A DNA stretch of 64,000 bases from an uncultured Acidobacteriota bacterium (GTDB taxonomy: Bacteria > Acidobacteriota > Thermoanaerobaculia > UBA5066). The stretch spans positions 736,001 to 800,000 of the forward strand of contig CAVZYA010000001.1 in assembly GCA_963779415.1 (NCBI GenBank), given 5' to 3'. Below the pieces are notes generated by a model, which was given only the letters and a program-made list of their open reading frames with translations, did not search any database and was not told where the DNA came from. A program made the position numbers and the translations under genes. This document shows, piece after piece, positions 10,258-45,046 of the stretch. Position 1 is the first letter of the stretch. Every line of letters starts with the position of its first letter.

Positions 10258-10945
10258 ATGAGGCAACGACGACGATCCGGCGCGTCTACGTCTGGGAGCT
10301 GCCGGTCCGCCTCTACCACTGGGTGAACGCGCTCTGCGTGGTCGTGCTCTGCGTCGACCGGCTACCTCATCGGCAGCCGCTCGCGATCCGAGCGCGCGCG
10401 CGAGGCGTCGTTCAGCTACTGGTTCGGCACCGTCCGGTTCATCCACTTCGTGGCCGCGTTCGTGTTCTTCTTCAACTTCGTCGTCCGCATCTACTGGGGC
10501 TTCGTCGGCAACCATGGTCACGCTGGCCAACTTCCTCCCCTTCCGCAGGCCCAGCGTCCGCGAGGCCGTCGAGGTGCTGAAGGTCGACATCCTCCAGGCC
10601 AACGCGTCGAAGCCGATCGAGTCGGTCGGGCACAACGCCGCTCGCCGGGTTCACCTACTTCCTGACCTTCCTGGCGTTCCTGTTCCAGAGTCGTGACGCG
10701 GGTTCGGCCTGTACGCCGCGATGAGCAAGTCGTGGCTGCCGCAGCCTGTTCGCCTGGATCGTGCCGCTGATGGGAGGCGATTTCGCGGTGCGGCAGTGGC
10801 ACCACATGACATGTGGTTCTTCATCGTCTTCGCGATGGTCCACGTCTACCTCGTCTTCTACCACGACTACGTCGAGGGGCGCGGCGTCATCTCGTCGATG
10901 GCGGGCGGGTGGAAGTTCGTCGAGAGGCCGGCGGAGAAGCCGTGA
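10258..10945 (+). CDS. hyaC: Hydrogenase cytochrome b subunit, frameshifted
   Basis: [56 protein letters not shown]. Confidence 0.88.
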
Positions 10946-11421
10946 GCGGGGACCGGCCGGCGGAGAGTGCCCGGCCGGTCCTGGTCCTGGGCGTCGGGAA
11001 CGTCCTTCTCGGCGACGAGGGGGCGGGTATTCACGCCGTGCGCCGGCTGGAGGAGGAAGAATGGCCGCCGCACGTGACCCTTCTCGACGGCGGAACGGGG
11101 GGCTTCCACCTCCTCTCGCTCTTCCAGGAGTACGAGCGAATCGTCCTCATCGATGCCACCATGGACGGCAAGCCCCCCGGCACCGTCCGGATCATCCGCC
11201 CCCGATTCGCCTCGGACTACCCGAAGACCCTCAGTGCCCACGACATCGGCCTGAAGGATCTCGTCGAGTCGGCCGCGCTGCTCGGCCACACCCCCGATGT
11301 CGTCCTGATCGTCGTCTCCGTCGAGACGCTTCCCGAGGGCCTCCGCGCCGAGCTGAGCCCCGAAGTCGCCGCCTCCCTCCCCCGCGTCGCGGAATTGGTG
11401 CGGGAGGTGGTGGAGACGTGA
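10942..11421 (+). CDS. hyaD: Hydrogenase maturation protease
   Basis: LVLGVGNVLLGDEGAG, LDGGTGG, LIDA, SAHDIGL. Confidence 0.9.
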   Translation: MSGDRPAESARPVLVLGVGNVLLGDEGAGIHAVRRLEEEEWPPHVTLLDGGTGGFHLLSLFQEYERIVLIDATMDGKPPGTVRIIRPRFASDYPKTLSAHDIGLKDLVESAALLGHTPDVVLIVVSVETLPEGLRAELSPEVAASLPRVAELVREVVET

Positions 11422-11440
11422 GAGTCTCCGAAGGACCAAA

Positions 11441-13987: not shown

Positions 13988-13990
13988 TCG

Positions 13991-14289
13991 ATGCACTACC
14001 TTCTCTTCTACGAGACATCCACGGACTACCTCGAGCGGCGGGGTGAATTCCGCGCGGAGCATCTCGCCCTCGCCTGGCAGGCCGTCGACCGCGGCGAGAT
14101 GGTCCTCGGGGGCGCGCTCGCCGATCCCGTCGACGGTGCCATCCTGCTCTTTCAGGGGGACTCGCCCGAGGTTGCCGAGCGTTTCGTCCGTCGGATCCGT
14201 ACGTGAAACACGGCCTCGTGAAGAAGTGGCGCGTCCGTCCCTGGACCACGGTGGTCGGCCCCGGCGCCACGAATCCCGTGAGGCCGTGA
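13991..14289 (+). CDS. YciI-like protein, one frameshift near 14190
   Basis: HYLLFY, RAEHL, LGGALADP; continues in another frame as DPYVKHGLVKKWRVRPWTTVVG. Confidence 0.8.
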
Positions 14290-14373
14290 TGCACGGTACG
14301 GAATCGCCGCCGCCCTTCTCCTCCACGCGGAGCCGGTACGGCGGTTCGTATCGGGATGCCGGCCAGGACGTCG

Positions 14374-15158
14374 GCCTAACGCGGACGGCACTAGGCAGAA
14401 ACTTCGTCGGCCTATTTCGAAACCTCATCGAGCCGGGAAATTCCTCTAAGAGGATGCACGAGAACGACGTGCCATCCGAATCAGACGACTTCGGCCCGCA
14501 GACAGGCCGATCGAACTTCCGCCTAAGCAGCCTCGCAAACGTCCGCCTACTTGTAGTTAGACGTACGAAGAAGACGCGATGCCTCGTAATCCCCTCCCGC
14601 CTCTTAGCCGACGCTGGCTCATCGTGGCCGCTCTCGGCACAGTCACGTCCTACCTCGTCGTCACCGTCGTAGGGAGCATCCTCACCCTCCTTCTCTATCC
14701 AGCGGTGCAGGGGATGTTGCAGTCGCCCAATGCGACAGTTCCGTTCATGGCCTTGATCGTGAACGGCTCCACGGTCGCAATCGCCCTCTGGTTCTTGGTG
14801 CTCGCCTCAGCGCGGGCCGAAGCGCCGTCGTCCTCTTCACTCGACGCGCTTCTCGCCCGAAACGTAGAGGTCCTGTCCGTAGCGAGCTTCGTTACTGTAG
14901 TCGCGTTCCTTCAGGTTGTCATCGGCCTCCTGACACACAGCTTTCACACCTTCCTTCTCCTGCCCTTCTCACACGCAACGCAGGTCGACATCTTTTCAAC
15001 CATTGCCACAGTCGCGCTCGGCATTGCCCTTCCGGCCATTCTGCTCGCTGGTCTGCTCACGCTGTCGGCTAGGTGGCAGGCGTCTCGGGGCTAGGCATAC
15101 GGGCGCCGCCAGACACCGAACCGGCGAAGCGTACCTCTAACAACGCGCTGCAGCGGAC
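14374..15158 (+). mobile_element. Possible degenerate integron gene cassette (attC-like ends)
   Basis: GCCTAAC (14374) and GTTAGAC core site (14556) enclose an imperfect hairpin; CTCTAACAACGCGCTGCAGCGGAC (15135-15158) after the ORF resembles an attC left arm; no integrase in the window. Confidence 0.4.
14579..15094 (+). CDS. Hypothetical 4-TM membrane protein with atypical codon usage
   Basis: 171-aa ORF with four hydrophobic segments and more A/T-ending codons than its neighbours. Confidence 0.6.
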   Translation: MPRNPLPPLSRRWLIVAALGTVTSYLVVTVVGSILTLLLYPAVQGMLQSPNATVPFMALIVNGSTVAIALWFLVLASARAEAPSSSSLDALLARNVEVLSVASFVTVVAFLQVVIGLLTHSFHTFLLLPFSHATQVDIFSTIATVALGIALPAILLAGLLTLSARWQASRG

Positions 15159-15387
15159 TTCCATGAGAAGGCCGGTCGAAGTCAAGAGGGCTTGGGTCTT
15201 TTGGTCGTCGTCCGGAGTGAGCGAGTTCGTCGCCAGGCTTCCATTCGCACTCGTGTGGGCTTGGTCTTCTGAGCCCGGTGCATGAGGGGGTCCTTCCCGG
15301 GCGGGCGCTGCAATCTCGCTGTCGGTTTACCGTGGCCGGCGTTGGCCGGTTGGGTCCGGAGTCCGCTACGCAGTCGCCCGGACGGGG

Positions 15388-15419
15388 CGCAATAGTGGGG
15401 TCACGCAATAGTGGGGTCA
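15388..15419 (+). repeat. Tandem 16-bp direct repeat CGCAATAGTGGGGTCA x2
   Basis: Directly visible; contains the GGGGTCA(G) motif that recurs in other intergenic regions. Confidence 0.7.
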
Positions 15420-15554
15420 GGCACCAAATTTCCATTATAGAAATTGAGGTTGGGCCGGGACTCCGGGGCCGGCGCGGACGATCCGGAGGAGCGCGGGGAA
15501 ACGCGATATCGTCAGGCGGGCCGAGAGGACGCGTCCTTCGCCCGGAGGATTCAG

Positions 15555-16016
15555 ATGCCGGAGATCCTCGACCGCCTCGTTCGCTTCAGCACCTTCATAC
15601 GCGCGACGCCGGACCGCGTCTTCGACGCCCTGGCGACGGCGGAGGGCCTCGACAAGTGGTTCACGTCGGGCTGCACGCTCGAGCCTCGGGCGGGCGGAAT
15701 CCTCGTCTTCCGGTGGAAGGACCACGGTCTCGACGGGTTCACCGGCGAATACCAGGGGTCGGTCGTCGAGTGGCAGCGCCCGACCCGCTTCGCCTTCCAG
15801 TGGCCGGTCGATCTGGGCAACTACCGGACGACCGTCACCGTCTCTTTTCGAGAAGAGTCGATACCTCATCTCGGGACCGGCACGGTCGTCAGCCTCGAGG
15901 AAGGCGTCTACGAAGACTCGGTTCAGGGACTTCAGGACATGTTCCGGCGGACGGCGGGATGGGCGGAGGTCCTGACGCTTCTCAAGCTCTGGGTCGAGCA
16001 CGGCGCGCGGTACTGA
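15555..16016 (+). CDS. SRPBCC/AHSA1-like protein
   Basis: IRATPDRVFDAL...LDKWF, C-terminal GW...L..LK..VE; RBS GGAGG. Confidence 0.8.
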   Translation: MPEILDRLVRFSTFIRATPDRVFDALATAEGLDKWFTSGCTLEPRAGGILVFRWKDHGLDGFTGEYQGSVVEWQRPTRFAFQWPVDLGNYRTTVTVSFREESIPHLGTGTVVSLEEGVYEDSVQGLQDMFRRTAGWAEVLTLLKLWVEHGARY

Positions 16017-17250
16017 CGGAAGGTTCGACCTCTTCAGAGACCCACATCCGGATCTGGTCGTAGACCTCGCGGCTGCCGAGAAGGTCGAGGTGCTTCAACC
16101 CGTAGAAAACGCGCTTGCGAGCCTTGGGAATCGGCAGATTCAGGGCCTCCTCGCGATGCTGGCCGAGCGCGCTCGTGACCGGCACGAGGCCGTCTCCCGC
16201 CAGTCGCTTCCTCTTCCCGCCGGGATCCGGTCTCTGGCTGGCCGCGATCGCATAGCACTTCACCCGGGGAGGCAGGGGGACGAACCGTCTCGGGTCGTGC
16301 GCATGCAGGCCGCGCCGCTTCATCCAGTCCTCGTCCAGCACGCTGCCGAACCGAAGATCCCTGATTCCGTCGCTCCGGATCGTCCCCAGGTTTGCCAGTG
16401 GCGCCGTATACGGGCTTACTTCCAGGAGGACCTCCGTCCAGTGCCCCGCCCGCTCGAACGGCGAGCCGTGGTGCGGCGTGCCGAGGAAGATCATCTTTTT
16501 CAGGCGGCGCACCCACTCGTGCCCCGCGAGCTTCCCGTAGTGGCAGGCGCTGCGCGCCACGAGACCCCCCATGCTGTGGGCGACGATGACCAGCTCGTCC
16601 ACCGGCTCCGGCCACTCACGAACCAGGCTCTCCATCAGCTCGGAGCATTCGCGCCCATTCGTGGAGACGTGCCGGCCGCTGTTGTAACGGAGATAGACCG
16701 GCGTGTAGCCCAGATCGCCGGCCAGCGAAGCACCGTGGTCGTGTCCCTCGCGCTGCCATCCCCGATCGTTCCAGCAGAGCCCATGCATCAGGACGACGAT
16801 CTTGCGGCCCGGCGCGGCGATCGTGGACTCGAGCGCCCGCCGGTCCAGCCGCAGGGTCTGCCCGTCCAGCCGAAAGCTCATCGCGATAGCCAGAGGGTTT
16901 TCGGTCGCGGCCAGGTGGTCTCCGACGACGCCGTTCAACGCGGCCAGAAGCGCGTCACGCCGCGGCGACGAGGGGGCCTCGTCGTCCCGCTGCGCGACCG
17001 GCGCGAACGCGGTCTCGAGTCCGAAGCCCACAAGGCGCGTGATCCCGTGAATGCTCCGGTAGACGAGGCCGGGAATCCCGCCGAGCGGCTTCGGGCGCCT
17101 TTCGCCCACGATCGGCGAGAGGCGGAGGATGTTGCCGTGCATGTTCTCGACGATTTCCGCGACTCCCGTCACGGCGGTGACGGCCAGCCGGCCGACACCG
17201 CGTGCGTCGGATGCGTGTCCGGAGATCGATCGCCGGTGACGGCCGCTCAC
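15982..17250 (-). CDS. Alpha/beta hydrolase, PGAP1/lipase-like; start approximate
   Basis: LMHGLC, RYNSG, AHSMGG nucleophile elbow, LGTPHHGS, GDGLVP, HLDLL. Confidence 0.85.
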   Translation of the reverse strand: MSGRHRRSISGHASDARGVGRLAVTAVTGVAEIVENMHGNILRLSPIVGERRPKPLGGIPGLVYRSIHGITRLVGFGLETAFAPVAQRDDEAPSSPRRDALLAALNGVVGDHLAATENPLAIAMSFRLDGQTLRLDRRALESTIAAPGRKIVVLMHGLCWNDRGWQREGHDHGASLAGDLGYTPVYLRYNSGRHVSTNGRECSELMESLVREWPEPVDELVIVAHSMGGLVARSACHYGKLAGHEWVRRLKKMIFLGTPHHGSPFERAGHWTEVLLEVSPYTAPLANLGTIRSDGIRDLRFGSVLDEDWMKRRGLHAHDPRRFVPLPPRVKCYAIAASQRPDPGGKRKRLAGDGLVPVTSALGQHREEALNLPIPKARKRVFYGLKHLDLLGSREVYDQIRMWVSEEVEPSVSTARRARPRA

Positions 17251-18244: not shown

Positions 18245-20927
18245 TTATTCCTTCACCGGCTTGACCTCGATCGTGGGTTTCGGCTCGTACCGCTTCAGGA
18301 AGTCGTCGAAGCTCTTCTGCTGGGCGGCCTTGAAAGCCGTCCGCAGCTGGATCACTTCCAGCGCCTGCGCCAGCATCCGCGGGCCACCCGCGTACTTCGG
18401 GGCCTTCTCCCTGAAGAAGGCTTCGGCCTCACCGCGGTGCGCCTCATCGCTGAAGTTGGTGGCGAGCCACGGAAAGTCCGCGGGCGCATCTCGCGGCAGC
18501 CGCTCGGCCAGCCGGTCGAAGTTCGCCACGAGAAACGCCCACGCCTGGGAAAACGTCTCGCGGCCGAACCCCTCCGCCCAGAGGATGTCGATCGACTCCC
18601 GCGCGTCGAAGTCGGTCGAAAGCGTCAAGGCGAGCGCCGCGGAGACGACGGACGGGGCGCGGAATTGTCCGAGGGCGTCGAGAAGGATCCTCCTCTCCCG
18701 GCGGTCCGAGGCCTTTTTCGCCTCCGCCACGTACGCCTGGAACAACGCCATGTCCCCATTTCGTGCGGCGACGCCCAGGACGCCGGAAACCATCAGCGGG
18801 TCGACGGCGCTCCGGTCCTTCAGCCAGGCCTTCACCAGGCGCATGGCCTCCGCCACGAGAGCCGGGTCGTCTCCCTCGTCCGCCACGAATGGCACGAGCC
18901 GTCGTCGCAGGAGCTGCGTGTCGTCGTCCTCCCCGGCCTTTCGCGTCCAGCCCAACGTCCGTGCCCGTGTGCCGAAGACGTCGCTCACGAACCGCCGGTA
19001 CGACGGCCTCGCCGCCTCCGAAACGAGGAGGTCGCCCGGCCTCTCGACAATTCCCTGCACGATCTCGACGACGGGACGGGACGGGTCGCTCGCGAAGACG
19101 GGGACGAGCGCGAGAGCCGTCGCGATGGACAGGTCTCCACTGCGAACGAGGTTGGCCACGTCCGAAAGCGTCGAGACGCGCTCGTCGGCCGTCAGGTGCT
19201 TCCCGCCGCCCTCGAGGAGCTTTTCCAGGAGGTCCCCCCTGTAGAGGACCCGGTAGTACCCGTTCCCGGCATTCGCCTGGACGCGGGCCGGGCACGCTCC
19301 CGCGAGCTCGAGCGCGCCGGACGCCTCCGTCAGAAGCGTGCATGTCGTCGCGGCGCCGGGATCACCCGTCCGAGCGCAGACCGGGACCTGCCATGTCTCC
19401 CGCGTCGAACCCGGGGAGCCCGTCGGCAGGTAGCGCTTCTGGGAAAGAGCCAGCTTCGGCGCGCCGCTTCCACAGACGAGGTCGGCCGTCACGAGCGGAA
19501 CGCCCGGCTGGTCGAGGAACGACCGGAACGCCGGGACGACGGCGGGAGTCTTCGTCGCCTCCGCGACCGACGCGACGAAGTCGTCCGCGGTCGCGCTCCC
19601 CCATGCGTGGGAGATCAGGTAGTGCCGGACTCCCTTCCGGAAGCCCTCCTCGCCGACCCATGCCTCGAACATCCCGATGACGGCACCGCCCTTCTGGTAC
19701 GTGATCGTGTCGAAGGCATTCGCAATGTCGTCGTTCCCCGCGATCGGCTGGCGGATTCGCCGCGCCGTCGCGAGCGAGTCCGCCGACATCGCATACGATC
19801 CGGTCGACGGCGCGCTCGGCCGCCTCGTTCCACTCGGGTCTCCAGCGGGCCAGAGTCTTCGAGGCCATCCACGTCGCGAACGCCTCGTTCAGCCAGATGT
19901 CGTCCCACCACGCCGTCGTCACGTAATCCCCGAACCACATGTGGGCCGTCTCGTGCGCGCAGACGCTCGCGTACGCCCGGCGGAAGGCGATCGTCTCGTC
20001 GGCGCTCTTCGCGAGGATCAGGTTCGATGAGTACGTCACGAGCCCCGGGTGCTCCATCGCGCCCCCTCCCTTCGGGACGGCGAGGTGGTCGAGCTTCTCG
20101 TACGGGTACGGGATGTCGAAGTACGCCTCCAGCTGATCGAGAAGCGGCCCCGTCGACTCCACGGCCCAGCGCGCGTCGGCGGCGCGCCTTTTCGGGACGA
20201 TCATCCGGATCGGGGTCTTGTTCCGGCCCGCGGTTCCGGCGTTCACGACGTCGAACGGCCCCACGCCGAACGCCACGAGATAGCTCGGGAGCGGCTTCGT
20301 CGGAGCGAAGACGAACGTCCGTCCGCCGTCCTCTCCGGGGGCCTCGGACACGACCGCAGTGTTCGAGACGGCGATCGCCCCCTTCGGCACATGGATCGTC
20401 AGCTGCCAGGGGGTCTTGAAGGCCGGCTCGTCGAAGCACGGGAACGCGCGGCGCGCGTCGATCGCCTCGAACTGGGTGAAGACGTACCAGTCGCTCCCCT
20501 CTTTTTCCCGGAAGACCGCCTCGGCGCCCTTGCTCTCGATCCGTCCCTCGTACGTCAGCGACACGTCGTATTCGCCGGGGGGGAGTTTCTTCTCGAACTG
20601 AAGGCGGATGAACTCCTTCCCCTCGGCCGACGCTTCCGCCTTGATCGCCCCCTTCGGGCCGCCCGCCGCGACGGCGGACGCCGCCTCGACCGTCAGCTCC
20701 TTCCCGTTCAGCCAGAGCGTGCCGGATTCCTCCTTCAGAGAGACGCGGATCTCCACCTTGCCCCGGAACGTCTCCCTGGCCGGGTCGATCCACAGCTCCA
20801 CGCCGTACCGGGTCGGAGCGGCGCCGGAGGGAAGCCGGAGCGTGGGTGGGGCCGGCGCGTCGGCCAGAGTCAGCGATGCAGGAAGCGCGAGGACGAGCGC
20901 TGCAAGCCGGATCGCCGATCTCTTCAT
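18245..20927 (-). CDS. Secreted M1 family aminopeptidase, one frameshift near 19790
   Basis: TQFE...ARRAFPCFDEP, GAMEH, HETAH-x18-E (WLNEAFA), FD.ITY.KG; signal peptide. Confidence 0.92.
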
Positions 20928-21078
20928 GCCCCGTCTCCTCTCCCTGTCATCTCTTGTTTGCACGATATCAGTCTGACTCCGGGCGTGCCGATCAGAACCG
21001 GCTCCCCTCGCCTTCTCCTGCCCTAGAATCGCGGCAGAAATTCCGTCCCGGAAATTCGCCTCGCAATGGAGGGAGATC

Positions 21079-21309
21079 ATGCCGAAGGCATCCGCGTCGG
21101 TCCGCCCCCGCACTCAGCGCACCAGCCGCCTTTCGCGCGACCTGATCGTCGACCTCGCCACCGCCCGCGCCGCCCTCCGAAACGCGCAGGCCCTGGCCCG
21201 CAAGCTGAAGAAAGCCGGAGCGGGTGAGGCCGCCTCGCAGCTCGCCGGCGAGCTGATCGCCCACCTCGAGACGGCTGCGAAGGCGCTCTCTCGGACAGGC
21301 CGCTCTTAG
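21079..21309 (+). CDS. Hypothetical small basic helical protein
   Basis: RBS GGAGGGAG; host-like codon usage. Confidence 0.55.
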   Translation: MPKASASVRPRTQRTSRLSRDLIVDLATARAALRNAQALARKLKKAGAGEAASQLAGELIAHLETAAKALSRTGRS

Positions 21310-24354: not shown

Positions 24355-24413
24355 TTGCCGGAGTCGATTGACGAGACGTAGACTTCCGCCAGGCTAGGCC
24401 TGAGGAGATCGCC

Positions 24414-26641
24414 ATGGAGACCGTGGCCCTGACGGGACGCACCCTCGGGCACTACGTTGTCCTGGAATCCCTCGGCGAGGGCGGCATGGGCGCCGTCTAC
24501 AAGGCAAGGGACAAGCGGCTCGGCCGGCTCGTCGCCCTCAAGGTCATGCGCCCCGACTGGACGAGCGATGCCGACCGGAGGCAGCGCTTCGTCCGGGAAG
24601 CCCGCACCGCCTCCGCGCTCAACCATCCCAACATCCTCGTCATTTACGAGATCGACGCGGAGGACGGTCTCGACTACATCGCCATGGAGTTCGTCCCGGG
24701 CGGGACGCTCGCCGACCTTCTCGTCTCCGGGCCCCTGCCTGCCGATCGCGCGCTGCGCCTGGCCGCCCAGATCGCCGAAGCCCTCTCCGCCGCGCACGCC
24801 GCCGGCATCGTCCACCGGGATCTCAAGCCGTCGAACATCATGCTGTCGGCCGAGGATCGCGTGAAGGTCGTCGACTTCGGACTTGCCAAGCTGGTCGGAT
24901 CCGCCTTGCCCACGGTGGAAGCGCCCGAGGCGGTCACGGCGACCGGCGCGATCCTGGGCACGGCACCTTACATGTCGCCCGAGCAGGCCGCGGGGCGCGC
25001 CGTCGACGCGCGCAGCGATCTCTTCAGCCTCGGCACGATCCTCTACGAGATGCTGGCGGGCCGCCGGCCCTTCGATGCCGACTCCTGCGCGGGCACGCTC
25101 GCGGCGATCCTCCGGGACGCCCCTCCGCCGATCGCCGGCGTCGCCCCGCCGGTTGCGCGGCTCGTCGAGCGCTGCCTCCGCAAGGACGTCGCCCGGCGCT
25201 TTCAGTCGGCCTCCGAACTGAAAGCGGCCCTCGAGGCCTGTGCCGCTCCCTCTTCGGACCGGGAAAGACCCTCCGTCGCGGTGCTGCCATTCACCAACAT
25301 GACCGGTACGAAGGAGGACGATTACCTCTGTGAGGGACTGGCCGAGGAGGTCATCAATGCCCTGACCCGCGATTCCCGGACTCCGCGTGATCGCCCGGAC
25401 CTCGGCGTTCGCCGTCGGCCGGCTGGGGCTCGACATCCGGGAGATCGGCGCACGGCTCGATGTCGAAAGCGTCCTCGAGGGGAGCGTGCGCCGGGAGGGG
25501 CGCCGGGTACGCGTGACGGCCCAGCTGGTGACCACGAGCGACGGCGGCCATCTCTGGAGCGAGCGCTACGATCGTGAGCTGACGGACGTCCTGGCCCTCG
25601 AGGACGAGATCGCCGCGGCGATCGCCGCGCGGCTGCGTCTGGACCTGGCGCGTGAGCACGCGCGAGCGACTGACGCCCGTCGTCGACGCCGAGGCGCACG
25701 CGGCCTATCTCGAAGGGCGCTACTTCTTCGCACGGGGTGCTCCGGAGGCCCTGATGCAGGCGATGGCGTGCTACGGGCAGGCGATCGCCAAAGATCCCGA
25801 CTTTGCGCTCGCCTTCGACTCGTTGGCGGAGCTGCACTGGTATCTCGGTTTTTTCGGCAACGTTCCTCCGCGCGAGGCCTTCTCGCAGAGCACCTGGCAC
25901 GCCCTGCGCGCCCTGGAGCTGGACGACGGGCTCGCCCAGACTCACGCTCTTCTCGGGATGCTCCGGAAGGAACTCGACTACAACTGGCCCGAGGTCGATC
26001 GCGAGCTGGCCCGGGCGCTCGAGCTGAACCCGGAGTCGCCGCTCGTCCGCCTGCGCTACGCCATCAGCGGACTCCTGCCGCACGGCCGCGTCGATGAAGC
26101 GGTGACCGAACTCGACGGCGTGCTCCGGGCCGATCCGCTCTCTCTCCTCGTCCGCTGGTGGCTGGCCGTGATGACGTACCTTGCCCGCCGGTTCGACCGG
26201 ACGATCGAAGAGGGCCGGCACATGATCGCGCTCGACCCGAACCATTTCCTCGGTCACTGGGCGCTCGGGATAGGTCTCGAAGAATCCGGCGCGAAGGCCG
26301 ACGCCGTCGCCGCGATGGAGAAAGCGCACGAGCTGTCCGGTGGGATACCGTTCACTCTCGGTTTCCTCGGGTACGTCTACGGACGCGCCGGACGACGCGA
26401 AGAGACACGTCGCGTGCTCGAGCGTGCCGAGCAACTCTCGAAAGCGGGCTATCTGCCCGCCTCGACCCTTGCCATGTGCCGCATCGGGCTCGACGACTGG
26501 GATCGAGCCTTCGAATGGATGGACAGGGCCATCGAGACGCGCGACCCGATCATCATGCCGATCAAGACCTTTCCGTTCCTGGACCCGGTCCGGAGCGACG
26601 CCCGCTACCGGGCTCTCCTCGACAAGATGCACCTCGTCTAG
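24414..26641 (+). CDS. Ser/Thr kinase with TolB-like and TPR regions, frameshifts near 25370 and 25655
   Basis: GEGGMGAVY, HRDLKPSN, DFGLAK, YMSPEQ, SVAVLPF; IARTSAF..LEGSVR and TPRs continue in successive frames. Confidence 0.88.
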
Positions 26642-35874: not shown

Positions 35875-36961
35875 ACCGCATCTCCCGTAGTTGTAGTAAG
35901 CCGCGCAGGCCCCTTCCGAGGAGACCATCGGCGCGCCGAGGGGCTTCTCCGGCGTGCATTGCGTCCCGAACGCGGCGCAGGCGCTCGGCTTCTTGAGGCC
36001 CCGGAGGATCTCCCCCGCGATGCAGATCGAGGGCTCTTCGGCCGTGATCGTCCCGACGTCGAAGCGCTTCACGGCGTCGTGACCGGCGTATTCGTCCCTC
36101 AGCCGCCATCCGCTCTTCGGGATGACGCCGATGCCGCGCCACGGCGCGGTCGCAGACCTCGAAGACCTCGGCGAGCGTCTCCTGCGCCCTCACGTTCCCG
36201 TCGCGCGTGACGGAGCGGGCGTACTGGTTCTCGACGCCGACGCGCCCCTCTTCGAGGGCTTTGAGGGTGAGCTGGATGCCGTGCATCAGGTCGAGCGGCT
36301 CGAAACCGGTCACGACGACCGGGATCCGGTACTTCTCGGCGATCGGCTCGTACTCGCGGTAGCCCATGACGGTGCAGACGTGGCCGGCCGCGAGGAACCC
36401 CTGCACGCGGTTCGTCGGGGAGCCGAGGATCGCTTCCATCGCGGGGGGGACGAGGACGTGGGAGACGAGGAGGGAGAAGTTCGGGACCCCCGCCTTCTTC
36501 GCCTGCCAGACGGCCATGGCGTTGGCCGGGGCCGTCGTCTCGAAGCCGACGGCGAAGAAGACGACTTCCTTTTCCGGGTTCTTCCGCGCGATCTCCAGCG
36601 CGTCGAGCGGCGAGTAGACCATCCGGACGTCGCCCCCCGAGGCCTTGACCGAAAGAAGATCGCTCTTCGAGCCGGGGACGCGGAGCATGTCGCCGAACGA
36701 CGTGAAGACGACGCCGGGCCGTCGGGCGATGGCGATCGCGCGGTCGATCATCTCGAGCGGCGTCACGCAGACCGGGCAGCCGGGGCCGTGGACCATCGTG
36801 ACGAACGGCGGGAGCATCTCGTCGATCCCGAACCGGATCAGCGTGTGCGTCTGCCCGCCGCAGATCTCCATCAGCGTCCAGGGGCGGGAGACGAGGCCGC
36901 GGATCGACGCGGCGAACTTCCGGACCGATTCACCGTCCCGGTACTCGTCGACGAAGCGCAC
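35871..36961 (-). CDS. hypD: Hydrogenase formation protein HypD, frameshift near 36140
   Basis: [35 protein letters not shown]. Confidence 0.95.
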
Positions 36962-37253: not shown

Positions 37254-39650
37254 TCAGACCAGAATAGCGCGTCCGGAGGCAATCCGCGCCGCCGCCACGG
37301 CTGCCTGCCCGAGGCAGATGCCGCCGTCGTTCGGCGGGACCTCGCGGTGGAGAAGGACGTCGAATCCTTCGCGACGGAGGGCCGCCGCGGTTCGCTCGGT
37401 CAGGAGCCTGTTCTGGAAGCAGCCGCCGGTCAGCGCGACACGCGGACAGCCGACGCGGCGGGCCACCTCCACGATCGCCGCGGCGAGCGCGTTGTGAAAA
37501 CGCGCGGCAAGCCGCGCGATCGGAACGCCGGCTGCGTGCTCGGCGAGGAGGGCCGAGACGAGGGGAGCCCAGTCGAGAAGGATCTTTGAGGGGGAAGCTG
37601 ACGCATCTACCGTCGGTGCGGTACCTGGCGCGCAGTCACGAAACGCGAGGAGACCGATTTCCTCGAGGGGTAATTCAAGAGACCCCGTGCCGACCTCTCC
37701 GGGGTCGGCGAGCCATTCGAGCTGCATGGCCGCCTGCCCTTCGAAGGAGCATCTCTGTGCCACGCCGAGAAGCGAAGCGACGGCGTCGAAGAGCCGGCCG
37801 GCGGATGACGTCACCGGGGAATTGAGGTTTCTTTCCAGCATCGATGAGAGGACTCGCTTCTCGGCCGCAGAAAACGCTCCCGAGGTCGCACCTGCTCCTT
37901 CTTTCTTACCTTCCAAGAAATCCCCCGTCGTTCCCCTTCCCCCTCTCTCTCTTTCTTCTTCAACCGCCATCTCCCAGAGGATCCCCGCCGCGCTGCGGCG
38001 TGGCTCGCGGACGGCGGCTTCGCCGCCGGGGAGGCGGAACGGCTTGAGATGCGCGACGCGCTCGTACCCGTTCGCATCGCCGAGAAGGAACTCGCCTCCC
38101 CAGACCGTCCCGTCCGTGCCGTAGCCCGTCCCGTCCCACGTGACGCCGAGGGCCGGGCCGTCGACGCCGTTCTCGGCGAGGCAGGAGGCGAGGTGGGCAT
38201 GGTGGTGCTGGACGGGGATCGTCGGGAGCCCCGACGCGAGCGCCCACTTCGTCGAGAGGTAGTCGGGGTGGAGGTCGTGCGCGACCGCCGACGGCGTCAC
38301 CTCGTAAAGGCGCGCCAGATCCCCGATCACCCGTTCGAACGCCGCGAGCGCCTGCGGCGTCTCGAGGTCGCCGATGTGCTGCGAAATGAAAGCCTGCCGT
38401 CCCACGGCGAGCGCCACGGCGTTCTTCAGGTGGGCGCCGACGGCGAGGAGCGGCGGCACCTCGTGCGGCAGGCGGACCGGGAGCGGCGCGAAGCCTCGTG
38501 CCCGGCGCAGGAGCCGCGGGACGCCGTCCACGATCCGCGCTACGCTGTCGTCCATGTGCCTCTCGATGGGGCGGTCGTGGACGAGGAAGAGGTCCGCCAT
38601 CCCGCCGAGGCGGACGAGCGCTTCTCTCTCGTCCGTGCAGATCGGCTCGTCGGAGAGGTTTCCACTGGTGGCGACGATCGGAAACTCGAGCGTGTCGAGC
38701 ATCAGGTGGTGGAGCGGCGTCGCAGGAAGCATCAGGCCGAGGTTCGGGTTCCCCGGCGCCACGTTCTGGGCCACTCCGTTTCCTTCCCGCGCCGGGAGAA
38801 GAACGATGGGCCGCTCCGGCGACTCAAGAAGGAGCGCCGCCTCCTCCGAGACCTCGCAGAGTCTCCTCGCAGCGGGAATGTCGCGGACCATCAGGGCGAG
38901 AGGCTTTTCGTACCGCTGCTTCCGCTCGCGTAGAAGCGCGACGGCGGCCCCGTTTTGCGCGTCGCATGTCAGGTGGAAGCCGCCGAGCCCCTTCACGGCC
39001 GCGATCCGGCCCTTCGAGAGAGCCTCGCCGCAGGCGAGCAGGGCGTCGTCCTGGGTCGCGAGGACGTCACCGGACGGTGCCCAGAGTTCGAGATGAGGCC
39101 CGCAGCTATCGCACGCGTTCGGCTGGGCATGAAAGCGCCGGTCGCGCGGGCTCTCGTATTCGGCACGGCAATCCGCGCAGAGCGCGAAGCCCGCCATCGT
39201 CGTGTTCGGCCTGTCGTACGGCAGCGCCCGGAGGATCGTGAAGCGCGGCCCGCAGTTCGTGCAGTTCGTGAAGGGATAGCGGTGCCGGCGGCTCGACGCG
39301 TCCCGCACCTCGGAAAGACAGACGCCGCACGTCGCGATATCCGGCAGGACGAGAACGCTCTTCGCCCCATTCTCGTGGCTGAACCGGATCTCGAAGGCCG
39401 ACGCCCCTTCAGGGGGGACCTCCCGGTCGCGGACCGAGGTGATCCGGGCGCGAGGAGGGGGATCTTCCTCCAGCCGCTCCCGGAACCGGCCGACGGCGGC
39501 GGCGTCCCCCTCCACCTCGAGGAAAACGCCGCGCCCGTCGTTCCGGACCCAGCCACCGAGCCCCCCGTCCGCCGCGAGGCGGTAGACGAACGGCCGAAAG
39601 CCGACCCCCTGGACGGCCCCCTCGATCTCGACCCGAAGCCTCGTCCGCAC
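37254..39650 (-). CDS. hypF: Carbamoyltransferase HypF
   Basis: VQGVGFRP, CTNCGPR, RFHAQPNAC, HDLHPDY, QHHHAH, PPNDGG. Confidence 0.96.
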   Translation of the reverse strand: MRTRLRVEIEGAVQGVGFRPFVYRLAADGGLGGWVRNDGRGVFLEVEGDAAAVGRFRERLEEDPPPRARITSVRDREVPPEGASAFEIRFSHENGAKSVLVLPDIATCGVCLSEVRDASSRRHRYPFTNCTNCGPRFTILRALPYDRPNTTMAGFALCADCRAEYESPRDRRFHAQPNACDSCGPHLELWAPSGDVLATQDDALLACGEALSKGRIAAVKGLGGFHLTCDAQNGAAVALLRERKQRYEKPLALMVRDIPAARRLCEVSEEAALLLESPERPIVLLPAREGNGVAQNVAPGNPNLGLMLPATPLHHLMLDTLEFPIVATSGNLSDEPICTDEREALVRLGGMADLFLVHDRPIERHMDDSVARIVDGVPRLLRRARGFAPLPVRLPHEVPPLLAVGAHLKNAVALAVGRQAFISQHIGDLETPQALAAFERVIGDLARLYEVTPSAVAHDLHPDYLSTKWALASGLPTIPVQHHHAHLASCLAENGVDGPALGVTWDGTGYGTDGTVWGGEFLLGDANGYERVAHLKPFRLPGGEAAVREPRRSAAGILWEMAVEEERERGGRGTTGDFLEGKKEGAGATSGAFSAAEKRVLSSMLERNLNSPVTSSAGRLFDAVASLLGVAQRCSFEGQAAMQLEWLADPGEVGTGSLELPLEEIGLLAFRDCAPGTAPTVDASASPSKILLDWAPLVSALLAEHAAGVPIARLAARFHNALAAAIVEVARRVGCPRVALTGGCFQNRLLTERTAAALRREGFDVLLHREVPPNDGGICLGQAAVAAARIASGRAILV

Positions 39651-39708: not shown

Positions 39709-42700
39709 TCAGGCGGGCGGCTTCCCGCGGCCGATCGAGATGTAGAAGCGGCCGCCGACGAGCGCCGGGTCTCCAGGGTATCCGAGCGCCTTGAAGTCGA
39801 GCCGCTCCTTCACCTCGGGGTATACCTTCCGCCGGTGCTCGGGGAGGTCCATCTGCTGGGCCTTCTGGTGACAGCGCGTGCAGGTGATCGCCTCGGCCTG
39901 GTGGCAGTCGGCGCAGCCGAGCGCCTTCTTCGCCGGGACGACCTCGTGGTGGATCCCGGAGTACATCTTCGTCTCGACGAAGCCGTACTCGCCGGAGTAG
40001 GGGACCCCCGCCTTCTTCATCCCGTCCGTGATCGCCTTCGACAGGTCGAAGTGTGTCCAGAAGCCGTCCCGGAGCTCCGAGATGGCGAGGACGTTGTTCC
40101 CCTTGTCGTACGGGAGGACGGCGGTGTGGAGCTTGAAGGGGAAGATGCGCGCGTCGGGCGTCCGCTTCTCGCCGACCGGGGCGTTCAGGGCGACCGGCTT
40201 GGACGGGTCGATCTTCTCGCCGACGAGCGACGCCGAGCGCGTGCCGTCGTACCAGAGATAGACGGGAAGGACGTCCTTGCCCCACGTGAGGGCGCCGAGC
40301 TTCTTGTCGTAGACGGGCCGCCCGTACGCGTCGGTCTTCTCGGGGCGGTCTTGTCCGGCCACGGAGAAGTCCGCGCCGCACGAGGGTCGGCGCGACGTGG
40401 GCGAAGGAGGGGATGTGGCACGTCTCGCACGCGACGGCCCGGACGTGGTCGTCGAGATGCCGGGAGAGGGGCCCGGCGACGCCGTGGGGCGTCAGGCCGT
40501 GGCACTTCTCGCAGCGGACGCGCCCCTCGACGGCCGGCGCTGAGAAGGACATCCCGGCGATCCGGTGGGCCGTCGTCGTGTGGCAGTCCTGACACCTCAT
40601 GTTCAGGGTGCCCATGTGCATGTCGAGGCCTTCGGCGTTCGAGGCGAGGTCCGGCTCGAGGTCGCCGTGGGCCGCGTTCGGAGCGCCGCCGACCCCGAAA
40701 TGGCACGAGCCGCACTCGCGACGTCCGGGACGTCCGATCTTCCGGGCGAGCGCCGCGAAATCGGTCGACGGGTCCGGCTGCCCCGCGCGGCCCACCACCT
40801 TCCTGTACGTCCCGGTCGAGTCGTGGCAGACGAGGCAGTCAATATTCGCCGGGTCCTTGAAGTCGAAGGTCCCGTCCATCCGGCCGTAGCCGATGTGGGT
40901 GACGGCGCTCTGCGGGGCCGTCGGGGCAATCGTGATGTAGTAGCTGTTGATCATCGAGGCGAGGGCCACCTCGGCGCGGTGTTCCTGCCCGACGATGGTG
41001 GGGGACCGCCCCTTCCAGAGCCAGTGGGCCGTCGAGAGGATGTCCTGTCCGACTTTCGCGTGGCACGTCAGGCACTCGCGCGTCACGTCCTGCGGCCCCG
41101 GCTTCTCCTTGAAGACGACGAGCGCGGCGTGGTTCGGTGTCAGGGGATGATGACAGCCGGCGCAGTCCGTCGGGGCCGTCGTCGGCTTGGGCTGCCGCTC
41201 GTGGCAGCCGATGCACTGCCGGTGGTAGGCCCCCTTCAGCCCGATGCGGGAGGGGGCGTCGGCCTCGTTCGGCAGTCCGTGGCAATGCATGCAGCTCTGG
41301 GGGGGACGGTCGGCCATGTTGTCGTGGCAGGCTGAGCAGGGGCCGCCGAGCTTCACGTCCATCGAGGCGTGAATCTCCTTGATGTCGGTCCCCACGCGGT
41401 CCTCGGTCGAGCTCGCGTGGCGGTGGTGGCAGACCCCGCAGTCCCCGTTGACCAGCTCGTCGTGGATCCGGTGGGCGAACGGGACGGGCTCGTAGTCGTC
41501 CCCCTGGGCCTTGAGGACCGCGGCGTCGAGGAGGTAGAAGTTCTTGTAGCCCGACGGACGGTGCGGGTACGCGGGACCCTTCTCGCTCGCCCGCGCCGGG
41601 GGCTTCGCCGCCGTGACCCGCTGGACCTCCTTCACGGTCAGCTCGCTCGCCTGGATCGCCTCTCTGTGGACGACGACGTAGAGGGCGACGAACCCGAAGA
41701 CGGAGGCGAGGGCGAGGCCGCGGACAACCCAGGTCCAGAACGGGGAGACCGCCTCGGCCCCCTCGTGCGCGAGCGGGGACGGAGCCTTCTCCTCGGCGGC
41801 GGCGCTCCCCGGCAGGATCGGGAAGAAGGTGACCATGAACCGGTAGCAGAAGAAGATCGAGCAGACGATCGCGATCGTCATCGAGATCTCGCCGACCGAC
41901 GGGAAGTAGGCCTTCTGCGAGAACGGCGGCTCGTAGGCGACGAGGAAGACGTTGAACCGGTTCAGGATGACGCCGAAGATGACGAGGCAGGCGCTGAAGA
42001 AGAGCCAGCCGGCGGAACGGCGGACCCCCTCGTTCATCAGGAGGACGAGCGGCGCCACGACCCCGAGGAGGAGCTCGACGGCGAGGGCGACCGTCGCGCC
42101 CGGGTGCGACACGAAGTCGAGCTGCCGGTGCCGGACGACGAGGTCGCCGATCTTGACGACCGCGTAGGCGCCGAGGAACCAGGGGATGAAGCGGGAGAGG
42201 GGCGCCAGAAGGTCCATCTCCGGCTTCCGGCCGAAGCTCGTGCTCGAGTAGATCGACTCGAGGATGACCATCGGGTACCCGACCGCCATCGCCGACATCA
42301 GGAAGAGGAGCGGGAGGATCGGCGTGTCCCAGATCGGGTTCAGCTTCGTGTGGGCGATCATCATCAGCGTCCCGAGGGACGACTGGTGCATGCACGAGAG
42401 GACGACGCCCGCGACGATGAAGACGGGGAGGATGATCCTGATCCAGGAGTGGATCGTCAGGATCGGCTTCTTGATCTTCCGGAGGACGCGGGCCCCCCAC
42501 TCGTCCCCCTCGGCCCGGGCCCGGAGGCCCTCGAGGACCGCCGGGCTCGTCTCGATCGCGAGGACCATGAGGTAGGCCATGACGCACATGCCCACCTCGA
42601 AGAGGACCGAGTTGCCCTGCCAGTTGAAGAGCGGGCGCCAGATGTTCCACCAGCGGCCGAGGTCGAACATGAGCGCGATGGCGACCCACAGGTAGCCGAG

Positions 42701-42994
42701 GAAGGCCGTCAGGATCGCCGGGCGGAGAAGCGGCTTGAACTTCTTCTTCCCGAAGATGTCGACGAGGGCGGCCGTCGTGAAGCCGCCCGCCGCGAGCGCG
42801 ACGCCGCAGGCGACGTCGAAGGAGATCCAGATCCCCCACGTGTTGATGTCGTCGAGGTTCGTGACGAACCTCAGCCCGAGGAGGAGCCGGGTGATGCCGA
42901 ACGCGTAGCCGACCGCCATGAAGACGAGGATGGCGATCGTGCCCGCCGTGAAGAACGGCTTCGATAGGCGCTGGGGGCGCTCGTGCGGGCTCAC
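39709..42994 (-). CDS. Fusion of NrfD/HybB-like membrane domain, cytochrome c3-like region and octaheme tetrathionate reductase-like domain (13 CxxCH), frameshift near 40375
   Basis: WGIWISFDV..GVALAAGG, MHQSSLG, LNRFNV; then CGVCH, CSACH, CMHCH, CIGCH, CAGCH, CLTCH, CLVCH, CGSCH, CQDCH, CEKCH, CETCH and, after the shift, CADCH, CTRCH; OTR-like IFPFKLH and LDFKALGY.GDP. Confidence 0.88.
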
Positions 42995-43965
42995 GCGGCA
43001 CCTCCCTCACCGCCGGAGGCGGGAGGCGTCGGTCCGGCGGCTCCGGGCGGCGCGCCGCCCCCTTCGGCCTTCCGGTTGTTCATCCACATGATGCCGGCGA
43101 GCAGGCCGTAGAGGGCGATCGGGATCGCCCCGAACCTGAAGATCCCGTGCTGGATCGCCTCGGTCCGGAGGGCCGGCGCCTCCGTCGTCAGCTTCAGGAG
43201 GCCGATCTCCTCGGGCGGGCGGCCGGTCAGGTAGATCCAGGAAGTGCCGCCCACCTCGTGCTCTCCGTAGACGTGCGGGACGTACCGGTCGGGGCGCTTC
43301 TCGAGTCGGTCCTTCGCCATCGCCATGAGCTCGACCCGCGTCCCGAAGACGAGCGCCTCCGTGGGACAGGAGGCGGCGCAGGCCGGGTTCGCCCCGGTCC
43401 CCTTGGCGCGGTCGGTGCAGAACTCGCACTTGCGCACCTTCGGGGTGAGCGCGACGCCGAACTGGTAGGCGGGGACCTCGAACGGGCAGGCGATCTGGCA
43501 GTAGCGGCAGCCGACGCAGATCGTCGGGTCGTAGACGACGGCTCCGTCCTTCGACTTCGTCAGGGCGCCGACGATGCAAGCCGAGACGCACGACGGGATC
43601 AGGCAGTGCATGCACTGGACCTTGCAGTTGGTCTCGGCGCTCGCGGCCTGGTCGGGCGACGGGCTCCCGGGGAACCTGTTCACGACCGTGAAGGCGTTCT
43701 CCGTCGGGCGCCGGAACGTCCGGAGCCCGTCCCGGTTCTCGAAGGAGTCGGCGGTCCGGGGGAGGTGGTTCCGCCGGTTGCAGGCCTCCTCGCACTTGCG
43801 GCACCCGATGCAGAGGGTCGTGTCGACGAGGACGGCCGCGTAGTCCGGGGCGGGTTCGGCCTTCCCCCTGGCGTCCTTCTCCTCCGGGGCGGCCAGCGCC
43901 GCCGTAGCGGCCACGGTCGAGGTCGTCAGCCCGAGGTTCAGCAGGGCCCGTCGGCTCAATGTCAT
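42991..43965 (-). CDS. Tat-exported 4Fe-4S protein, HybA/HmcB-like
   Basis: SRRALL; CIGCRKCEEAC, CMHC...CVSAC, CVGCRYCQIACP, KCEFC; YGEHEVGGTSW; C-terminal TM. Confidence 0.92.
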   Translation of the reverse strand: MTLSRRALLNLGLTTSTVAATAALAAPEEKDARGKAEPAPDYAAVLVDTTLCIGCRKCEEACNRRNHLPRTADSFENRDGLRTFRRPTENAFTVVNRFPGSPSPDQAASAETNCKVQCMHCLIPSCVSACIVGALTKSKDGAVVYDPTICVGCRYCQIACPFEVPAYQFGVALTPKVRKCEFCTDRAKGTGANPACAASCPTEALVFGTRVELMAMAKDRLEKRPDRYVPHVYGEHEVGGTSWIYLTGRPPEEIGLLKLTTEAPALRTEAIQHGIFRFGAIPIALYGLLAGIMWMNNRKAEGGGAPPGAAGPTPPASGGEGGAA

Positions 43966-44185
43966 CGATCTCTCACTTCAGGCTCGTCGCGAGGGGAGCG
44001 GCCGGAGGGGACGACGCGCGCCCACCTTCCGGGATCCGGGTACTCTCCGCCCATCTCACACCTCGCCAATCCCGGAACCGACTCTAGGTTCGTGGTCTGC
44101 GGCGCGCCATGAGCCAAACGCCTCAACTCGCCCGGCGGCGGGCGGGATTACGCGCGGGGGGCCGTCGGGAAGATCTGGAAGGCCG

Positions 44186-45046
44186 TTACTTCTTCGCCTT
44201 CCACTCCGCCAGGGCCTTCTCGAAGGCCTCCAGGTTCGGCTTGTCGGGAGAGGCCTTTCCGAGGGCCACGGCCTCCTCGCCGGCCTTGATCGCCTCGGCG
44301 GTCTTCCCTTCCGCCGCGAGCATCCGGGCCATCTGGGCCGTGTTCGCGTAGCCCTTCTTCGCGGCCACGGAGCGCTCGACGTCCTTCATCGCCTCACCCG
44401 GGTCGCCGAGCTTCTCGCTCGCGAAATACCGCCCCACCGCGAGCGGCGTCTCCCAGTCGTCCGCCTTCGCCCCGGCGACCGCCGCGCGCCCCTTCGAGAG
44501 GACCAACGCTTTGGTGTCGACCTTGAAGTGCACCGGGACCCGCAACTTGTCCCAGATCAGGGAGAGGTCCGCCCCGTCGTTCGAGACGTTCCGGAAGACG
44601 ATCGTGAAGGTCTCCACCGATTCCGGGAAGGCCACCGGCTTGACGGCGACGCGGAGGGCGTCCTTCTTCTCGTCGTACTCGGTCTTGTACCAGAGGTCGA
44701 GGTCCTTGTTGAAGGCGACCGTCCACGACTCCTTGCCGGGGATCGTGACGATGCTGTAGGTACCGGCCGCGAGCTTTTTCCCCTCGACCTCGATGTCGTC
44801 CGGGAAGGAGAGCGTCGTGGCGCGGTTCGCGCCCGTTCGCCACGGCTTGTCGTACGGGACGAGGCCGCCCCAGATCACCCGCCCCTTCACGCCGGGACGG
44901 CTGTAGGAGACGCTGAATTCCGTGACGCCGATTCTCTGCGTCACCGTGGCCTTCGGGCTCGGCATCGGGGCCTCGAACTGGGCGGCGAGGGGCGCCGCGG
45001 AGAGAGCGAGGGCCAGTGCCGCGGAGAGGAGAGCCGGTTTCTTCAT
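44186..45046 (-). CDS. DUF2911 family secreted protein with TPR-like tail
   Basis: Signal peptide; PSP, YSRPGVKGR.IWG.LVPY, WRTGAN. Confidence 0.87.
   Translation of the reverse strand: MKKPALLSAALALALSAAPLAAQFEAPMPSPKATVTQRIGVTEFSVSYSRPGVKGRVIWGGLVPYDKPWRTGANRATTLSFPDDIEVEGKKLAAGTYSIVTIPGKESWTVAFNKDLDLWYKTEYDEKKDALRVAVKPVAFPESVETFTIVFRNVSNDGADLSLIWDKLRVPVHFKVDTKALVLSKGRAAVAGAKADDWETPLAVGRYFASEKLGDPGEAMKDVERSVAAKKGYANTAQMARMLAAEGKTAEAIKAGEEAVALGKASPDKPNLEAFEKALAEWKAKK

Follow-up and report, generated by a model that had tools for sequence, protein, structure and literature searches.

Two adjacent genes on the minus strand (43965..39709) of a 64,000-nucleotide (nt) stretch of DNA from an uncultured Acidobacteriota bacterium of the Thermoanaerobaculia, hereafter the window, whose positions supply all coordinates given below, encode an exported iron-sulfur (FeS) protein and, within one polypeptide, an NrfD-family membrane domain, a five-haem module and a domain homologous to the octahaem tetrathionate reductase (OTR) of Shewanella oneidensis. 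On balance, we favor reading the pair as a self-contained quinol:periplasmic-acceptor respiratory module akin to the Nrf, Hmc and alternative complex III (ACIII) systems, whose copy in the window probably serves as an electron conduit. This reading draws on the order of the domains, the placement of the haem-bearing ones in the periplasm, the constant presence of the FeS partner, the conservation of HybB-type residues and the homology to OTR, each of them directly seen or well supported, and on a haem attachment site of OTR that is missing from the window copy. To judge from its conservation among homologues, the fusion is real, common and under selection. The architecture is not rare either, and is abundant in public databases, where automatic annotation calls it “Ni/Fe-hydrogenase cytochrome b subunit” in some entries and “octaheme c-type cytochrome (tetrathionate reductase family)” in others. 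Literature searches, whose coverage did not extend to Pereira et al. (2011) and Duarte et al. (2021), found no published description of the fusion, and neither “fused” nor “fusion” occurs in a review of the NrfD family (Calisto and Pereira, 2021; PMC8076601).

The fusion gene (42994..39709, minus strand) encodes one protein of 1094 residues once a single extra G is read through, and residue numbers refer to this read-through protein. As given, the sequence is divided into a frame A (42994..40373, minus strand), with a GTG start at 42994, 874 sensible residues and nonsense thereafter, and a frame B (40371..39712, minus strand) of 220 residues with its stop codon at 39711-39709. The closest homologue, P0003, which is 95% identical and also 1094 residues long, reads PTLVRRDFSVAG across the break in one frame. 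Compared with the intact orthologue at locus L001, from a Thermoanaerobaculia metagenome-assembled genome (MAG) whose synteny with the window extends over about 20 kb, the coding sequence (90% nucleotide identity) shows as its only indels a 3-nt indel and a 1-nt insertion at about 40373, and the change of frame falls between residues 875 and 878 of that orthologue. The match to the model TIGR04315 covers model positions 14-257 in frame A and continues over positions 265-430 in frame B, so that a single OTR-like domain spans the break. A programmed frameshift was rejected because all homologues use one frame and the window differs from them by one inserted base, and the extra G is most likely an error of assembly, with very recent inactivation the less likely source.

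The alternative of a true pseudogene, in which a genuine extra G would yield a truncated product without the last 220 residues, takes the sequence as it was deposited, frameshift included, and can point to the earlier loss of a haem site in the same lineage, readable as relaxed selection. We regard it as improbable, since the change is a lone 1-nt event within an otherwise intact frame, protein identity to L001 does not drop across the break (88.6% ahead of it, 91.4% beyond), the third-position G+C content (GC3) of frame B is 0.93, and the same haem-site loss is found in P0003, P0093 (an 800-residue entry) and L001, of which P0003 and L001 have intact full-length open reading frames (ORFs). 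At least four further genes in the window also carry frame changes, namely hypD, the small and large subunit genes of a hydrogenase, and a split pepN. Frame changes this dense, each flanked by sequence that is equally well conserved before and after it, point to indel errors made during assembly. In hypD (minus strand), one frame change lies at about 36144-36146 relative to the intact L001 orthologue (residues 327/328), with 88-91% identity on both sides. The aminopeptidase N-like gene at 18248-21113 (minus strand) consists of two ORFs that overlap and correspond to successive stretches of the pepN model, a probable frameshift.

The membrane domain of the fusion protein (Table 1) is a member of Pfam family PF03916 (residues 50-351, E 2e-19, 70.8 bits against a gathering cut-off of 25.8). 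Among the NCBIfam models it comes closest to HybB (NF008133; residues 6-395, 320.1 bits) and HmcC (NF045714; residues 18-394, 277.6 bits), both below the respective equivalog cut-offs of 450 and 550, and the NrfD equivalog model yields 29.7 bits against a cut-off of 347.6. Assignment to the HybB-type subfamily with 10 transmembrane helices follows from the ten hydrophobic segments before residue 395 and from conservation of the quinone-site and channel residues. The residues of the quinone site and putative proton half-channels of Escherichia coli HybB have been listed (Calisto and Pereira, 2021; PMC8076601), and among them, in an alignment of five sequences, D58, R89, Y99, D109, E133, Y141, E148, E155, H184, S186, S187, K198, E291 and R329 (E. 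coli numbering) are invariant. Hydropathy analysis delimits the ten segments up to residue 394 and places an eleventh at residues 421-443. The loops at residues 82-93 and 155-183 are rich in Lys and Arg, which puts the N-terminus in the cytoplasm, and it is well supported, as far as topology can be read from sequence, that the NrfD domain ends in the cytoplasm and that the 11th helix places the cytochrome part in the periplasm, the location that covalent attachment of c-type haem requires. In the split form at locus L054, described below, the separate cytochrome begins with a hydrophobic N-terminus comparable to this helix. An AlphaFold2 model of P0003 (mean predicted local distance difference test score, pLDDT, 60.8; predicted template modeling score, pTM, 0.45) can be trusted chiefly in its membrane domain, and was of use for that domain and for parts of the OTR-like domain only. 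In Foldseek searches, the best matches of this model among solved structures were OTR (1SP3; E 1e-24, TM-score 0.75, 36% identity), the quinol-oxidizing ActC subunit of ACIII (TM-score 0.65-0.71, about 16% identity), which led for the membrane fold, and PsrC (TM-score 0.63).

Beyond the 11th helix, the protein carries 13 CxxCH motifs, five at residues 519-611 and eight at residues 641-1038, and their invariance across 38 aligned homologues (54-77% identical to P0003) shows that they are not a chance pattern. The five-haem part resembles the C-terminal end of HmcA, as seen in a match of the NCBIfam model at residues 553-616 (E 6e-16; 58 bits, below the cut-off of 400) and in the alignment of the HmcA structure 1h29_A to residues 540-616 of P0003 (about 77 residues, E 9.5e-18), which corresponds to the last c3-like domain of HmcA. 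The class III cytochrome c family PF02085 was not reported for the window protein at E ≤0.01, and is listed by the database for many homologues of the fusion. For the OTR-like part, TIGR04315 gives 235.1 bits with the frame-A piece (residues 632-867) and 173.8 bits with the frame-B piece, each scored separately against a cut-off of 375, frame B also matches Pfam Cytochrome_cB (E 1e-51), and residues 16-417 of the OTR structure 1sp3_A align with residues 635-1033 of P0003 (E 3e-100). Seven of the eight motifs in this part align with seven of the eight of OTR, whose second motif is missing, and the remaining one, CTRCH, is a ninth, family-specific motif located in an insertion after the last OTR motif and invariant in the family. 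A preliminary description of this DNA, made without database searches, had proposed one gene with one probable frameshift, joining an NrfD domain, an extra transmembrane helix, a class III-like region with five CxxCH motifs and an OTR-like domain with seven plus an additional CTRCH. The single inserted base is borne out by P0003 and L001, the junction and domain order by the full-length homologues discussed below, and the helix by hydropathy and the AlphaFold2 model, and the motif count proves exact when aligned to 1sp3_A; the absence of the site corresponding to the second OTR motif had gone unnoticed.

Table 1. Coordinates of the FeS/fusion gene pair, its parts and the adjoining hypF gene in the window.
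Feature	Position	Strand	Remarks
FeS protein, exported by the twin-arginine translocation (Tat) route, 4x[4Fe-4S], HmcB/HybA-like, C-terminal transmembrane anchor	42991..43965	-	Partner subunit of the fusion protein
NrfD-family membrane domain, HybB/HmcC type, residues 1-395	41810..42994	-	10 transmembrane helices; presumed quinone/quinol site
11th transmembrane helix, residues 421-443	41666..41734	-	Cytoplasm to periplasm; hydropathy peak 2.12; helix 418-463 in the AlphaFold2 model
Five-haem c3/HmcA-like module, residues ~500-620	41135..41497	-	CxxCH at residues 519, 553, 568, 594, 611
OTR-like domain, first part, residues 632-874	40373..41101	-	CxxCH at residues 641, 720, 761, 801, 828, 856
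Site aligned with the second CxxCH of OTR	40883..40912	-	QSAVTHIGYG; both Cys absent, His kept
Frameshift	40371..40372	-	One G too many in a GG pair, compared with intact homologues
OTR-like domain, second part, residues 875-1094	39709..40371	-	CADCH at residue 1027, extra CTRCH at residue 1038, stop codon
hypF	37254..39650	-	TIGR00143, 783 bits; 58 nt downstream of the fusion; non-conserved neighbor

The gene preceding the fusion specifies a protein with an SRRALL twin-arginine signal, four Cys-cluster motifs and a hydrophobic C-terminal stretch, which matches Pfam Fer4_11 (E 2.5e-18) and, as its best models, HmcB (302.2 bits, cut-off 420) and HybA (250.7 bits, cut-off 263), falling below both cut-offs; its stop codon overlaps the start of the fusion gene as GTGA. 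Relatives of the fusion are encoded on 596 stretches of species-representative genomes, the best 80 of which underlie all locus counts reported here. An FeS homologue lies directly upstream on the same strand in all 76 loci with at least 700 nt of upstream sequence, and the other four comprise three with almost no upstream sequence and one with a partial FeS match. Across the family, nothing besides this FeS gene is conserved in the neighborhood of the 80 loci. Upstream of the FeS gene (43966-44200) there is no match to a sigma-54 promoter, such matches being no more frequent in the window as a whole than chance predicts (26 observed, 31.5 expected), and a scan for sigma-70 promoters returned 0 sites.

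What sets the window copy apart is the state of the OTR-like domain, where the second CxxCH of OTR (CTSCH in 1sp3_A) aligns with QSAVTH, or QSAATH in P0003, and where the Cys of the preceding NNYC stretch is a Tyr. The window shares with P0003, P0093 and L001 the replacement of both Cys of the aligned site and of the nearby NNYC Cys. Seven of the eight OTR motifs align, the second reads AVTH in the window, and one extra motif follows the eighth. Most relatives have C..CH.GYG at this site, with PRCTSCH in the Desulfobacterota forms. Among the 112 full-length homologues in the matches listed, 87 have 14 CxxCH motifs and 25 have 13; within the latter, the site was located in 10 and has neither Cys there, and P0045 keeps it and lacks another motif. 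In a phylogenetic tree, the window groups with P0003 (support 100), and this pair is nested within the 14-motif sequences, with P0004 as sister, followed by P0006 and P0007 (support 98-100), and a separate deep group of 23 sequences also has 13 motifs; the fewest state changes needed are 4. The 14-motif relatives, which retain the second haem site, are probably quinol-dependent reductases, and the lack of a thioether site in the lineage of the window makes a pure transfer role more likely, so that the copy studied here would more likely pass electrons to another redox partner than act as an OTR-type enzyme. A more far-reaching proposal, which we consider unlikely though worth entertaining, is that the family constitutes a previously unrecognized class of quinol-dependent multihaem reductases, in which loss of the catalytic haem site, on at least two independent occasions, turned an enzyme into a dedicated outlet for electrons at the inner membrane, serving for instance acceptors in the periplasm or outside the cell, one of these losses being recent and in the Thermoanaerobaculia lineage of the window. 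Two genes at L001 for CbcL-like proteins combining a multihaem cytochrome c with a cytochrome b would fit a cluster of quinone-pool outlets.

The converse possibility is that the window copy is still a quinol-dependent terminal reductase, operating through a haem held without thioether bonds or through another of its haems, on tetrathionate, nitrite, hydroxylamine or a sulfur intermediate. Strong homology to OTR and the invariant motif His at the lost site speak for it, as do the Desulfobacterota loci in which the fusion stands beside genes for TusA, a molybdopterin oxidoreductase, an FeS protein and a NarJ-like chaperone, and a 36-fold induction by tetrathionate of otr-annotated genes of a Thermoanaerobaculia MAG in sediment microcosms, in a study whose authors call the induced Otr periplasmic (Flieder et al., 2021; PMC8528874). 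Yet the otr forward primer of that study matched none of the 80 loci, and no tie between the fusion and the tetrathionate-induced genes was drawn. The catalytic haem of OTR is attached through a normal CxxCH motif and takes a Lys ligand from a neighboring helix (PMC13562315), and both the Cys pair of the aligned site and the NNYC Cys are replaced in the window, P0003, P0093 and L001. Moreover, no Lys is conserved where the GKK stretch of OTR aligns, a region with a gap in the alignment. With these replacements, the reductase reading appears doubtful for the window copy. The second motif of OTR we take to be that of the catalytic haem, and its ligand to be Lys56.

This assumption is itself one of several points that weigh against a conduit in the window. 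Loss of the Cys residues is no proof of loss of the haem: the His of the lost motif is invariant in 38 sequences, and a haem bound there non-covalently, or an active site of another kind, is possible. The search pattern for the H-x-G-Y-G landmark missed it in 14 of the 25 proteins with 13 motifs, and the tree was built with FastTree only. The cytochrome part is poorly modeled by AlphaFold2 (pLDDT <50 at residues 463-620), and the model is uninformative on haem packing. As to direction, the homologous HybB, Hmc and Qrc systems run towards quinone reduction. Finally, the frameshift could be real, making the window copy non-functional, and co-transcription of the fusion with the hyp genes downstream is possible.

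The FeS protein, anchored at its C-terminus, would dock on the periplasmic face of the NrfD domain, by analogy with homologous systems, and the 10-helix NrfD domain would bind quinol or quinone. The 11th helix leads the chain back out, with the five-haem wire followed by the OTR-like domain in the periplasm. Menaquinol would be oxidized at the NrfD site, and its electrons would travel along the FeS clusters and the five-haem wire before reaching the haems of the OTR-like domain, and from these to a periplasmic acceptor or partner cytochrome, possibly accompanied by proton movement through the conserved HybB-type channel residues. The compact electron module from quinone to periplasm put forward in the preliminary description agrees with these residues and with the topology.

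Such an overall logic would be that of the E. coli NrfABCD system and of ACIII, packed into two genes. NrfABCD couples the quinol dehydrogenase NrfD to a four-cluster FeS protein, a five-haem cytochrome and a catalytic multihaem cytochrome of the NrfA/HAO/OTR kind. It thus has the same chain of parts as the FeS/fusion pair, but distributes them over four separate proteins and has an 8-helix NrfD, whereas the fusion unites NrfD, wire and end domain in one chain, and in the window copy lacks the site that aligns with the second haem motif of OTR. ACIII likewise includes a 10-helix NrfD-like quinol-oxidizing subunit, an FeS subunit and a transmembrane-anchored five-haem cytochrome, ActA (PMC8076601), but also ActF (a second NrfD-like protein), ActD/ActE and the molybdopterin-like part of ActB, none of which is encoded by the window pair. 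OTR itself, despite its homology over the whole OTR-like domain, is a soluble protein of about 440 residues, whereas its counterpart here is the C-terminal domain of a membrane protein, with a ninth CxxCH in an insertion and, in the lineage of the window, without the second CxxCH or a conserved Lys at the GKK site. The Hmc and Nhc complexes of sulfate reducers (HmcABC..., NhcABCD) share with the pair a c3-type multihaem cytochrome, an HmcB-type FeS protein and an HmcC-type NrfD protein, but as separate subunits; HmcA, with its 16 haems, lacks an OTR domain, Hmc includes further cytoplasmic subunits, and no HmcDEF-like genes were recognized adjoining the FeS/fusion pair.

In Melioribacter roseus (NrfCD, Mros1571-1572) and Ignavibacteria relatives, homologous FeS and NrfD genes occur in the same order, followed by a cytochrome with 13 motifs (loci L058 and L030), but this cytochrome is a separate gene product of about 385 residues with a signal peptide and no OTR-like domain. 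The Melioribacter NrfCD pair has been proposed to act as a quinol:acceptor reductase feeding periplasmic multihaem cytochromes (PMC3534657). Also at L058 (17884-19038), a gene for a fusion of a response regulator with a GcvH-like domain lies a few kb from these NrfCD genes. Ohc of Desulfovibrio (OhcBAC) combines an octahaem cytochrome, an FeS protein and a membrane subunit, and has a divergently transcribed sigma-54 activator gene (PMC4641369). The preliminary description had held that these modules are separate proteins elsewhere, naming Ohc among its examples, and this stands for known relatives, including members of the same family, but Ohc proves a poor comparator: its membrane subunit OhcC is a haem-b protein (PMC4641369), in contrast to the NrfD domain of the fusion, which places the pair outside the Ohc group.

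The breadth of the family emerged from a protein search with the first 869 residues as query, which scored 8000 candidates and gave 976 proteins at E ≤0.001, 120 of them listed. Among these 120, 112 have at least 1000 residues and contain both NrfD and cytochrome domains. A HMMER search of all cluster representatives at 50% identity yielded 3459 proteins at E ≤0.001, with four full-length fused forms (P0061, P0123, P0124, P0125) along with NrfD and c3-like fusions of about 620-730 residues. In the best 80 of the 596 stretches, full-length fusions occur in Acidobacteriota (Thermoanaerobaculia, Holophagae, Polarisedimenticolia and bins labeled Aminicenantes), Myxococcota and Desulfobacterota, including the cultured Desulfocarbo indianensis. 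The same parts also occur split in several ways. Desulfatibacillum alkenivorans DSM 16219 (L054) and locus L036 have an FeS gene, an NrfD gene (398 residues) and a 712-residue cytochrome with a hydrophobic N-terminus and 13 motifs, L063 and L076 have FeS, NrfD (400 residues), five-haem (238 residues) and OTR-like (about 400 residues) proteins, and Melioribacter roseus and Ignavibacteria, as already noted, have FeS, an NrfD of about 415 residues and a separate 13-motif cytochrome without an OTR part. The opposite fusion choice, with the FeS protein and NrfD joined as a polypeptide of about 730 residues, is found at L034 (9029-11239), L067 (9017-11203), L061 and L070; at L067 and others the fused protein has about 728 residues and a cytochrome follows. 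A separate multihaem cytochrome gene comes after the FeS-NrfD fusion at L061 and L067, and none was recognized there at L034 and L070. Exchange of components between fused and split forms is a usual sign of parts that work as one complex.

The pair is thus, as far as the comparisons reach, a widespread and mis-named variant of known modules, with recurrent loss of a haem site as a further point of interest. In annotations of environmental genomes, octahaem cytochromes of the OTR type often figure as soluble reductases of tetrathionate or nitrite, usually without an assigned electron donor; the fusion puts a donor module into the same polypeptide and makes one route from the quinone pool explicit. 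Both automatic names mislead, and metabolic reconstructions that count a hydrogenase subunit or a soluble Otr on their strength would err, in a family that is abundant among the Acidobacteriota, Myxococcota and Desulfobacterota of soils, sediments and reactors. Fused and split forms, together with those having 14, 13 and 12 motifs, offer a comparative set for how a catalytic multihaem enzyme becomes a wire, and cultured carriers exist for both the fused (Desulfocarbo indianensis) and the split form (Desulfatibacillum alkenivorans).

The HybB-like and HmcC-like character of the membrane domain raises the question of hydrogen. In one rival explanation, the pair would anchor a periplasmic [NiFe] hydrogenase in the membrane and accept its electrons, conducting them from H2 by way of the haems and FeS clusters to quinone, and would be co-expressed with hypFCDE. 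The NrfD and FeS parts do score best against the HybB, HybA, HmcC and HmcB models, hypF begins 58 nt downstream on the same strand and is followed by hypC, hypD and hypE, the window also has [NiFe] hydrogenase subunit genes and hypA/hypB, and Hmc-type complexes of sulfate reducers take electrons from periplasmic H2 oxidation (PMC4287179). No terminator-like site was detected in the 58-nt gap between the fusion and hypF, in scans in which such sites occur overall at chance level. Nonetheless, all four equivalog scores lie below their cut-offs, and the hydrogenase genes of the window are about 30 kb away on the other strand, much nearer to an unfused HmcB/HmcC-like pair. Conserved synteny, sought with both hyp and hydrogenase genes, was rejected: hyp genes occur within 10 kb at one of the 80 loci, L001, where a 944-residue multihaem-c/cytochrome-b561 gene of about 3 kb, oriented the opposite way, stands between the fusion and hypF, and a hydrogenase large subunit was matched at none of the 80 with a query that was a 182-residue fragment. 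Taken together, these counts make the hydrogenase-linked reading quite improbable, and the hyp genes look like a local juxtaposition with an accidental, unsupported link to H2. The preliminary description was right about the Tat-dependent FeS gene directly before the fusion and about hypF on the same strand behind it; the connection with H2 metabolism that it built on this neighborhood is not supported.

The [NiFe] hydrogenase locus (7414-11379, plus strand) comprises genes for a HybO-like small subunit, a HybC-like large subunit and a HybD-like protease. Relative to the E. coli proteins, the subunit genes (7414-10215) are broken, the small one into two frames and the large one into at least three, with at least four frame changes counted together. 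Towards the start of the window (474-5321, plus strand), the unfused HmcB-like/HmcC-like pair (474-2718) is followed by genes for a GcvH-like protein and a sigma-54 activator; its HmcC-like product scores 499.3 bits, near the equivalog cut-off of 550, and a cytochrome partner of this pair, if any, would precede the start of the window. Two Ser/Thr protein kinase genes (11357-13987 and 24372-26641, plus strand), one encoding TPR repeats and the other followed by a gene for a TPR protein, adjoin the hydrogenase and the hypA/hypB genes.

At L001, the genes that flank the FeS/fusion pair (5088-8933, plus strand, and 13334-16168, minus strand) each combine a multihaem cytochrome c with a cytochrome b561 (Ni_hydr_CYTB) and are absent at the corresponding positions of the window. 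A family of PAS/sigma-54 activators (cluster 2), usually on the opposite strand, accompanies the fusion at 18 of the 80 loci. Six loci from Desulfobacterota (L028, L039, L046, L055, L060 and L062) share a recurrent cluster, covering about 1.5 kb of upstream and 7 kb of downstream sequence around the fusion, that comprises a divergent PAS/sigma-54 activator gene, TusA, FeS, fusion and monohaem cytochrome c genes, and those for a 730-residue molybdopterin oxidoreductase, a 213-residue FeS protein and a NarJ-like chaperone, although individual loci may lack some of these genes. This arrangement hints at a pathway for sulfur compounds in that phylum. As a by-product of a pattern scan, the 15-mer TGACCCCACTATTGC was found twice, 16 nt apart, at 15389-15419 (minus strand) of the window.

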